Assembly: GCA_029742005.1 (NCBI GenBank)
Contig: GCA_029742005.1_4113.1
Direction: 5' to 3' (one strand)
DNA length: 64,000 bases
From: a phage
Below the pieces are notes generated by a model that worked only from the letters and a program-made list of their open reading frames with translations, was not told the DNA's origin and ran no database searches. A program made the translations under genes and the position numbers. Every line of letters starts with the position of its first letter. The stretch's first letter is position 1. Below are positions 1,279-1,360 of the stretch, one piece after another.

Positions 1279-1360
1279 CCGGGCGTATCTCAACGGTCTT
1301 CTAAACCGTCGTTAATCGAGTAACTGGAGTATACAGGTTCGAGTCCTGTCGCCTGGGCCA
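1279..1360 (+). tRNA. tRNA-like element, possibly tRNA-Arg(TCT)-like, with degenerate or missing D arm
   Basis: Good acceptor (CCGGGCG/CGCCTGG), T arm ACAGG-TTCGAGT-CCTGT and 3' GCCA; anticodon arm ACGGT-CTTCTAA-ACCGT has the same stem as the adjacent tRNA-Ser; only ~5 nt where the D arm should be. Confidence 0.35.

Follow-up and report, generated by a model that had tools for sequence, protein, structure and literature searches.

A non-cloverleaf RNA gene beside tRNA-Ser(TGA) in a jumbo phage and its relatives, a widespread family of putative phage arginine tRNAs

The window analysed here is a 64,000-nucleotide (nt) stretch of phage DNA (NCBI GenBank assembly GCA_029742005.1, contig GCA_029742005.1_4113.1), which belongs to a jumbo coliphage of the 121Q/PBECO4 group (Asteriusvirus); its region 1100-1500 matches phage 121Q at 95.5% identity. 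On its plus strand, 4 nt after a tRNA-Ser(TGA) gene that ends at 1274, starts an 82-nt element (1279-1360) that looks like a tRNA without a D arm. A preliminary description had ascribed to this element an acceptor stem, a T arm and an encoded CCA, together with an anticodon stem identical to that of the adjacent tRNA-Ser(TGA) and a loop CTTCTAA (anticodon TCT), and all of these we found as described. The roughly five nucleotides counted at the place of the D arm are those that follow U8 and A9 in TATCTCA, the 7 nt between the two stems. The 23-nt variable region also has the length given (1310-1332), but it is not a single unpaired stretch, as GAG at 1318-1320 pairs with CTC at 1289-1291. Comparison of sequences places the element in a widespread, phage-specific and mostly unannotated family of tRNA-Arg genes whose products would not fold as cloverleaves and would constitute a new structural variant of tRNA. 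The element itself is probably a functional tRNA-Arg (UCU, reading AGA) with a rewired topology, which would be charged and would decode.

The element at 1279-1360 and its phage relatives

With position 1 of the element numbering set at window position 1279, the sequence reads CCGGGCG TAT CTCA ACGGT CTTCTAA ACCGT CGTTAATC GAG TAACTGGAGTAT ACAGG TTCGAGT CCTGT CGCCTGG G CCA and divides into the following parts.

1279-1285 (+): acceptor stem, 5′ strand, CCGGGCG (element positions 1-7), paired with 1350-1356; 7 of 7 pairs have compensatory changes across the family
1286-1288 (+): connector J1, T8 A9 T10; no variation in 59 distinct sequences retrieved by a pattern in which these bases were unconstrained
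1289-1291 (+): 5′ strand of a hidden 'rewired D stem', C11 T12 C13, in pairs 11-42, 12-41 and 13-40
1292 (+): junction base A14, with non-canonical covariation with position 39
1293-1297 and 1305-1309 (+): anticodon stem, ACGGT/ACCGT; 5 of 5 pairs covary
1298-1304 (+): anticodon loop, CTTCTAA; anticodon TCT at 1300-1302, reading AGA
1310-1317 (+): asymmetric bulge, CGTTAATC, of the form C-R-TTAA-N plus the base opposite A14; the C and TTAA are conserved
1318-1320 (+): hidden helix, 3′ strand, GAG, partner of CTC 1289-1291
1321-1332 (+): connector J2, TAACTGGAGTAT, with a D-loop-like A-A-y-T-G-G-A...; GG at 1326-1327 and an A20-like A at 1328; runs directly into the T stem
1333-1349 (+): T arm, ACAGG-TTCGAGT-CCTGT, with canonical T54, Psi55, C56, R57 and A58; G53-C61 invariant; 4 of 5 pairs covary
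1350-1356 (+): acceptor stem, 3′ strand, CGCCTGG; one G-U pair in the window copy
1357 (+): discriminator G
1358-1360 (+): encoded CCA

The anticodon arm of the window copy conforms to the tRNA pattern, a stem of 5 base pairs (bp) and a 7-nt loop with Y32, U33 and R37, and the bulge CGTTAATC separates its stem from GAG, the 3′ half of the hidden helix. A D hairpin (10-13 with 22-25) is lacking; the acceptor and anticodon arms are joined by TATCTCA only.

Standard tools largely pass over the element. ARAGORN, run in its default, intron and mitochondrial modes, called nothing at 1279-1360, that is, no standard cloverleaf emerged, though a non-standard fourth helix exists. With the score threshold lowered to 80%, ARAGORN returned a poor 'tRNA-Asp(atc)' fold, which covariation does not corroborate and which we rejected. 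A gathering run of Rfam over the whole window did not report the element with the tRNA model RF00005; a run on the small region alone gave 34 bits (gathering threshold 29), reached only by a local alignment that deletes 15 D-arm positions. Folding of the single sequence yields a three-helix structure with z = -0.76, no more stable than shuffles. Because this fold energy is unremarkable, a single sequence cannot decide the matter.

A BLAST search with the 82 nt alone retrieved 206 phage records, 198 of them matched over nearly the full length. The rewired gene is carried at 96-99% identity by 24 Asteriusvirus records and at 86-90% by Felix O1-like phages, Sugarland-like siphophages, Mydovirus/Vequintavirinae myophages and jumbo phage 7t3. 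More divergent matches come from Kamaji, a Demerecviridae phage (79% identity over the full length), and, with part of the query covered, from a Kuravirus (91% identity, 78% coverage) and Streptomyces phages (83% identity, 80% coverage). Three successive sequence patterns matched 48, 71 and 85 contigs of IMG/VR, and more than 120 metagenome contigs were matched by pattern. By contrast, the 185,579 species-representative genomes of bacteria and archaea contained one pattern match, on a contig of a metagenome-assembled genome (MAG), and on this basis the family is phage-specific. Our collection comprises 219 copies, 158 of them distinct, in loci labelled here by L-numbers (such as L059).

All search patterns forced TTAA, and those behind the larger sets also forced TATC, TAA, TGGAGTAT and GTTCRA. 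Where motifs had been left free, GGAGTAT was invariant in 35 distinct sequences (pattern 1), as were TAT-C11 and TAA in 59 (pattern 2). A covariance model, R1, built from the family and run over 1.7 Mb of collected sequence, scores family members at 72-104 bits and ordinary tRNAs at no more than 37 bits; in the window it finds exactly one copy, at 100.8 bits. Together with the search motif TATC-N22-TTAA-N5-TAA-N0-1-TGGAGTAT, R1 makes the family directly searchable. Two copies stand apart from the rest: L096 13348-13429 (anticodon UCU) has a longer J2 (UAAUUGGAUAGAACAU), and L059 2689-2766 (anticodon ACG) has a bulge of only 3 nt, UCA, from which it follows that the CGTTAA bulge is not indispensable.

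ARAGORN finds 5 of the 219 copies, and in GenBank the family members are mostly left blank or are labelled tRNA-Leu(taa), tRNA-TERM, tRNA-OTHER or tRNA-Val. Since gene finders miss or mislabel the family, the tRNA repertoires of phages, and arguments built on their codon usage, are wrong in hundreds of genomes, among them those of candidate therapeutic phages from the Felix O1 and 121Q groups. Our literature search, which included motif strings, found no description of the family; most papers in subscription journals lay outside it, so that a prior description is possible. The candidate RNA 'DNAVirus_2961' (Fremin et al. 2023), which overlaps with ARAGORN tRNA-Arg calls only sometimes, is a possible earlier sighting.

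Four helices and arginine identity

In sets of first 35 and then 51 distinct sequences, pairing is at 96.5-100% in the stems of the acceptor, the anticodon arm and the T arm, with compensatory changes in 15 of 17 pairs in the former and 16 of 17 in the latter. Taken jointly, the three helices are paired in 99.2% of cells, as against 66% for shuffles and 37-51% for slid controls, and have a covariation score of 0.865 versus 0.22; RNAalifold independently recovers the same three. Across the family, the T-stem G-C at element positions 59-67 is invariant and the T loop reads TTCGAnn in 153 and TTCAAnn in 5 of the 158 distinct sequences. The connector between the acceptor and anticodon stems and the '23-nt region' are almost invariant and form the most conserved part of the molecule.

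The first sign of a fourth helix came from Streptomyces phage Genie2, which has TATCGCC and GCG instead of TATCTCA and GAG. A scan with free positions gave at least 11 matching combinations (CTC/GAG, CGC/GCG, CAC/GTG, CAG/CTG, CAT/ATG, CTT/AAG, CGG/CCG, CGT/ACG, CCC/GGG, CCG/CGG and CTG/CAG). In the 158 distinct sequences the three pairs are distributed as follows.

Pair 11-42: C-G 158; 100% paired; invariant, with the shuffle uninformative
Pair 12-41: U-A 91, G-C 38, A-U 26, C-G 3; 100% paired; shuffle mean 47%, maximum 61% in 5000
Pair 13-40: C-G 132, G-C 14, U-A 10, U-G 2; 100% paired; shuffle mean 78%

The helix is thus paired in 158 of 158 sequences, with all four Watson-Crick types at pair 12-41, and pairing drops to 12-44% when the register is shifted. 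We rejected a competing arrangement in which CTC would pair with a second GAG (1327-1329, inside TGGAGTAT) and extend the acceptor stem; it is satisfied in 83% of cells, compared with 100% for the first GAG. Positions 14 and 39 covary in a non-canonical manner (A·C 82, C·A 33, A-U 17, C-G 9, U-G 8), resembling the 26·44 hinge pair of normal tRNAs. When all column pairs are ranked by mutual information, exactly these four helices emerge and nothing else.

Read from covariation, a four-helix anatomy is established for the family: acceptor (7 bp), anticodon (5 bp), T (5 bp) and D-type (3-4 bp). In the D-type stem, positions 11-13(14) pair with a triplet 3′ of the anticodon arm, an arrangement that puts this arm in the usual place of the D loop. 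Downstream of the 3′ strand, and leading straight into the T stem, comes a D-loop-like segment, TAA-y-TGGAGTAT, with G18, G19 and an A20-like A retained. Its AAyTGGAGTA closely matches AAyTGGATA, which is the D-loop consensus of the canonical tRNA-Arg genes with which the family shares its arrays.

Other folds fared poorly in the alignment. The cloverleaves behind the labels Asp(atc), Leu(taa), TERM, OTHER and Val read the bulge CGTTAAT as an anticodon loop, are mutually inconsistent and find no support in covariation. A self-paired variable arm, GTTA/TAAC, which RNAfold weakly suggests, loses its closing pair (G-G in Felix O1, T-C in 7t3). Membership in the class II tRNA-Ser was likewise rejected: the hairpin of the variable arm is not kept, the region pairs with 11-13, and the anticodons are those for arginine.

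With the loop unconstrained, the anticodons of the 158 distinct sequences are TCT (144), CCT (6), ACG (5), TCG (2) and ACT (1). Arginine anticodons thus account for 157 of 158, C35 is present in all, and position 36 is T or G in all; at the level of sequence, the restriction to arginine anticodons is clear. The identity set of arginyl-tRNA synthetase (ArgRS) consists of C35, U36 or G36, A20, and A or G at position 73. The family anticodons fit its anticodon rule (C35; U36/G36) exactly, and the loops CUUCUAA and CUACGAA are identical to those of bacterial tRNA-Arg. GG followed by A is found in 158 of 158 family members, the A lying at 1328 in the window (TGGAG). In the canonical tRNAs of the arrays that contain family members, as far as their D loop has a GG, the following A is specific for arginine: it occurs in 59 of 59 tRNA-Arg and in 99 of 1290 others. 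The discriminator is G in 91, A in 59, T in 6 and C in 2 sequences (purine in 150 of 158, 95%), and CCA is encoded in 107 of 158 (68%).

Two other identities were considered. G3:U70 is the classical identity pair of alanine, and such a wobble is present in the window copy (1281/1354) and in the Sugarland, Felix O1 and KB57 copies, as well as in canonical tRNA-Arg(TCT) genes, those of Hallingskeid and of phages of the G17 type (L003 734-810; L004 939-1011). We rejected it as an alanine mark, since family-wide it occurs in only 11 of 158. A serine-type identity, for which the long variable region, the discriminator G and an analogy with mitochondrial tRNA-Ser(UCU) could be adduced, is excluded by the anticodon distribution and GG-A. 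The anticodon stem shared with the neighbouring tRNA-Ser is a local coincidence, since the family contains many other anticodon stems. Recombination or gene conversion with tRNA-Ser as the source of the arm was rejected as well; the canonical tRNA-Arg of Hallingskeid has the same arm type (one compensated pair differs), and other family members have unrelated stems.

Genomic setting and competing explanations

Two features precede the element in the window.

1145-1174 (+): promoter-like site, TTGGGA/GGGACA ... TG-extended TATAAT; 10/12 match to consensus, with TG before the -10 hexamer
1185-1274 (+): canonical class II tRNA-Ser(TGA), 61.7 bits with RF00005

No terminator-like site was found within 1050-1750. 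The tRNA-Ser and rewired genes are probably co-transcribed; judging from this layout, a dicistronic tRNA-Ser/rewired precursor that would start from the promoter-like site and continue into small open reading frames (ORFs) is plausible. Canonical tRNAs are present in 170 of the 216 loci of the collection, and 117 of the 219 copies lie within 300 nt of one. In arrays, the rewired copies keep normal tRNA spacing (for example, 4-7 nt from their neighbours), and several rewired isoacceptors can occur in one array (TCG and TCT in L093; CCT, TCT and ACG in L165). Where a canonical tRNA-Arg resides in the same locus, it usually has another anticodon, mostly ACG.

The slot after tRNA-Ser(TGA) is occupied by a normal tRNA-Arg(TCT) of 74-77 nt in phages G17, ph0011, JP4 and Erwinia phage Hallingskeid. 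The Asteriusvirus records fall into two groups without overlap: in this slot, 24 carry the rewired gene and 10 a canonical tRNA-Arg(TCT). For fEgEco12, a phage of the rewired type, six tRNAscan tRNAs are reported, none for Arg (PMC13070987), whereas seven including Arg are reported for Sharanji, which is of the canonical type (PMC11895373). In the long ORFs of the window (34% GC), AGA makes up 28% of Arg codons and 9 per 1000 codons overall. The genome paper on Felix O1 noted that AGA is strongly over-represented and that the cognate tRNA is unexpectedly missing (PMC3185647); the rewired gene lies unannotated in the Felix O1 array at 25953-26032 and would account for the 'missing' tRNA.

We regard the element as a real tRNA-Arg because the anticodons are restricted to arginine, C35 is invariant, GG-A is kept and canonical tRNA-Arg is replaced in the same slot. 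Among the options of the preliminary description, a tRNA-like stable RNA came closer, although the evidence points to a tRNA-Arg and not to an RNA of obscure role. From the geometry of tRNA, the hidden helix would be expected to stack on the anticodon stem into one long arm, in the manner of the D stem of an L-shaped tRNA, and the relocated GG to dock on the canonical T loop. The changed connections 9->22, 21->48 and 43->10 (standard numbering) would join residues that are neighbours in normal tRNA; the RNA may for this reason be viewed as a topological isomer of the L-shape. Transcription from the site at 1145-1174 would include tRNA-Ser; released by RNase P and 3′ nucleases, the rewired RNA would be charged by the host ArgRS through C35, U36, the A20-like A and purine 73, and would supply the decoding of AGA, a codon that the phage uses often and E. 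coli seldom.

Several points weigh against this assignment. All that lies beyond secondary structure is inferred from sequence. The hidden helix has only 3-4 bp, is not predicted by energy-based folding and was derived from covariation alone. The relocated GG and the A that follows never vary, which places docking on the T loop and equivalence to A20 outside the reach of covariation. One family member has the anticodon ACT, and some of the 'invariant' motifs were imposed by the search patterns, with cross-validation being partial. Finally, a canonical tRNA-Arg with the same anticodon stands alongside the rewired gene in 6 of the 216 loci (L033, L055, L104, L132, L138 and L165), so supply does not always depend on the rewired form alone, which may have some other or further role.

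A bolder extension of the decoding tRNA-Arg assignment, which we consider doubtful, is that the rewired fold is itself an adaptation, accepted by ArgRS, EF-Tu and the ribosome yet able to escape host tRNA-directed nucleases or surveillance and, at the DNA level, homing endonucleases directed against canonical tRNA-Arg genes. If true, the family would be the first case in nature of an elongator tRNA that works in the bacterial cytoplasm without a cloverleaf and, in addition, a device for counter-defence or selfish spread. The coexistence with canonical copies and the horizontal spread across unrelated phage families would then be accounted for.

It is unlikely that the RNA is a mimic of tRNA-Arg that does not decode, but instead binds, titrates or diverts a factor acting on tRNA-Arg, or serves as a donor of charged Arg outside translation. 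A host anticodon nuclease or other tRNA-directed defence, ArgRS and a modification enzyme are candidate targets, and phages are known, in general terms, to carry tRNAs that counter tRNA-cleaving defences. That the bulge and J2 are so extremely invariant, however different the hosts, would fit a protein-binding surface, and the six loci with a canonical tRNA-Arg of the same anticodon suggest that decoding supply alone is not a sufficient explanation everywhere. However, in whole clades the rewired gene is the only gene of tRNA-Arg(UCU) type and occupies the canonical slot. Moreover, the four Arg isoacceptor anticodons, including the TadA-type loop CUACGAA, are expected of a decoding set and not of a decoy with a single target. 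As the hosts extend from enterobacteria to Streptomyces, any partner must be universal, and no conserved gene for a partner protein was found beside the element.

A genomic or cis-acting element in which the anticodon arm is incidental, be it the target or immunity site of a homing endonuclease or a signal for processing by RNase P or RNase E, is very improbable. What recommends it are the neighbouring genes: in several phages unrelated to one another, an endonuclease-type ORF begins 3-38 nt after the element. These ORFs are of HNH_3 type in Sugarland, Kamaji, 7t3, L041 and L035. In Felix O1 the ORF encodes 119 Cys/His-rich amino acids (aa), has no Pfam match at E<=0.01 and is called 'HNH endonuclease' in the related records of FO1a, JN01 and warpig; in L037, an ORF of 257 aa gives a RAP-domain match below threshold (21.6 bits, cut-off 24.2). 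In 7t3 and L041 the element and the HNH gene reside outside any tRNA array, in the manner of a mobile cassette, and near-identity across unrelated phages implies horizontal transfer. Yet an ORF of at least 100 aa directly follows 47 of 188 evaluable copies, these ORFs belong to many unrelated families, mostly singletons (about 20 loci fall into endonuclease-like clusters), and the window copy has no large ORF downstream. Conservation at the DNA level cannot yield compensatory changes in four helices or anticodons for arginine only, and a processing signal would need no anticodon loop, C35 or GG-A. An obligatory unit of RNA and HNH endonuclease was rejected, the association being facultative and heterogeneous; adjoining endonucleases may have helped the rewired gene to spread horizontally.

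Hardly credible, finally, is the 'degenerate duplicate' or 'pseudo-tRNA' of the preliminary description, a decaying tRNA-Arg(TCT) or tRNA-Ser recombinant with its D arm lost and junk in its variable region: the absent D hairpin, the failure of tRNA finders, the anticodon stem of the neighbouring tRNA-Ser and a fold no better than shuffles would suit it, but at least 158 distinct versions in unrelated phages have 95-99% of stem cells paired, abundant double substitutions, compensatory changes in four helices and invariant loops, the supposed junk is the most conserved part, the stem identity with tRNA-Ser is not a property of the family, a true remnant (L191 485-552, decayed, without acceptor stem and with a broken T stem) looks different, and an artefact of contamination or chimerism is unlikely since isolate genomes from many laboratories carry the element.

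Some further features of these loci were recorded. Endonuclease-type ORFs from at least three unrelated families follow the rewired tRNA at L006 2589-3098, L010 2587-3150, L007 ~2584-2943 and L009 2596-3114 and in L037/L050 and L022; in L024 the neighbour is an RNA ligase (PF09414). Arrays of the KB57 type (L008/L013/L046) contain tRNAs to which ARAGORN assigns no identity, with 'anticodons' of 2 or 4 nt: ???(ga), ???(gt) and ???(gtca). Such calls lie, for example, ~360 nt upstream and ~1240 nt downstream of the rewired gene and occur in Mydovirus and Felix O1-type arrays; they are further atypical tRNA genes.

In L168 (3368-3451, +), a second apparently rewired RNA with the anticodon TAT (Ile/AUA) is located 10 nt upstream of a standard rewired tRNA-Arg. 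It reads TGAAGAG-TA-ACGGT-CTGGG-CTTATAA-CCTAG-GAGTTTAAAT-ACCGT-AATGGTTCTT-GGGGG-TTCAAAT-CCCTC-CTCTTCA-A-CCA, is unrelated in sequence to the family, is missed by ARAGORN and scores 46.8 bits with R1. Its fold is plausible, but we rejected it as a second rewired class: it is a singleton, for which the phage collection contains no relative and pattern searches gave nothing informative. If it were real, the rewired architecture would not be limited to arginine.

Elsewhere in the window, ARAGORN calls a 92-nt tRNA-Ser at 3901-3992 (+) with the anticodon ACT. An A34 at this place is unusual for bacteria-type systems. The tRNA-Ser(ACT) recurs in other phage arrays (7 calls, such as L165 11941-12023 and L138 3020-3102), and AGT makes up 36% of Ser codons in the window. 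If A34 were deaminated, I34-C35-U36 could read AGA too; the sister phage Sharanji is reported to have a tRNA adenosine deaminase and a CCA enzyme (PMC11895373). Small paralogous ORFs whose products start MTH(E/K)EW are interleaved with the tRNA genes at 172, 690, 1382 and 1543 (+); those at 1382 and 1543 have ~54 codons, and their 121Q homologues, of 165 nt, are annotated as hypothetical. A promoter-like motif, TTGACTAAATAGTTCAGTACTG-TATAAT, with a conserved spacer occurs at 1719-1746, ~2196-2225 and ~2975-3000 (+), before successive units of tRNAs and small ORFs. Between a strong promoter-like site, TTGACT...TATAAT (~2196-2225), and a T-run (~2566-2575) lie ~345 nt (2232-2575, +) that form a candidate non-coding RNA: Rfam gives no match at E<=1, the only ORFs are short ones with GTG starts, and the fold z is -2.15.

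Comparison with known systems

To our knowledge, the cloverleaf has been treated as universal apart from some animal mitochondrial tRNAs. If charged and decoding, the rewired RNA would be a natural counter-example that works with ordinary bacterial ArgRS, EF-Tu, RNase P and ribosomes, and would demonstrate that the chain can be connected in another way and still make an L-shape. For tRNA engineers it would offer a naturally evolved scaffold that is probably orthogonal-looking, and for structural biology a compact system in which to test what tertiary contacts make a tRNA.

A close likeness is to canonical tRNA-Arg(UCU) (G17, Sharanji and JP4; T4; E. coli argU), with which the rewired RNA shares the loop CUUCUAA, a 7-bp acceptor stem, a canonical T arm, a purine discriminator, CCA and a D-loop-type AAyUGGA, as well as the slot after tRNA-Ser(TGA) in sister phages. 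It differs in that the partner of 11-13 and the D-loop-like segment are located 3′ of the anticodon arm, where they replace the 5-nt variable loop, and in an extra conserved bulge, CGUUAAY, which goes with a length of 82 nt compared with 74-77 nt. In the order of its segments, the gene recalls the circularly permuted tRNA genes of Cyanidioschyzon merolae and some archaea, which also depart from the standard. Precursors from permuted genes are processed back into a normal cloverleaf, however, whereas the rewired RNA of mature length keeps normal 5′ and 3′ ends and is changed only in the internal connectivity of its D region.

The preliminary description had also drawn a parallel with the stable RNAs of T4, which did not hold. 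Like the rewired gene, T4 rnaC and rnaD (species 1 and 2) encode small stable RNAs in a phage tRNA cluster, and rnaC has a tRNA-like 3′ end, but they measure 119-139 nt, lack an anticodon arm of the rewired type and have no relationship to the family in sequence or architecture. Run with filters off over T4 69000-75000, R1 gave at most 18.4 bits on rnaC and nothing on rnaD, and the tRNA-Arg of T4 is canonical. At T4 70908-71247 (L224), rnaD and rnaC directly follow tRNA-Arg, which the GIY-YIG homing endonuclease SegB precedes; this arrangement of tRNA-Arg, endonuclease and odd RNAs echoes the contexts of rewired genes, though the RNAs are unrelated.

Mitochondrial tRNAs without a D arm (bovine and human mt-tRNA-Ser(AGY), and those of nematodes and arachnids) resemble the rewired RNA in having no D hairpin, a short connector, a helix of more than 5 bp on the anticodon side and a three-way junction, and they are functional in translation (PMC7609411, PMC11551756). 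They are, however, shortened and Y-like, have no elbow contact between D and T loops, no GG and no T-loop motifs, and need co-evolved factors. By contrast, the phage RNA exceeds a normal tRNA in length, retains a canonical T loop, a relocated GG-A and a replacement helix, and, being encoded by phages of bacteria, must work with ordinary bacterial enzymes. A review of non-canonical tRNAs does not mention phages in connection with loss of the D arm (PMC7609411), and a paper from 2024 describes all known bacterial tRNAs as canonical (PMC11551756). The latter work, by Edelmann et al., concerns 'mini HisT', an artificial tRNA without a D arm in evolved E. coli, which is accepted by a bacterial aminoacyl-tRNA synthetase, EF-Tu and the ribosome but requires a pnp mutation to accumulate, degradation by PNPase being limiting (PMC11551756). 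Mini HisT and the rewired RNA have in common the absence of a D hairpin; mini HisT, however, is synthetic and results from a simple deletion of 11-25, without the replacement helix or the relocated D loop of the phage family.

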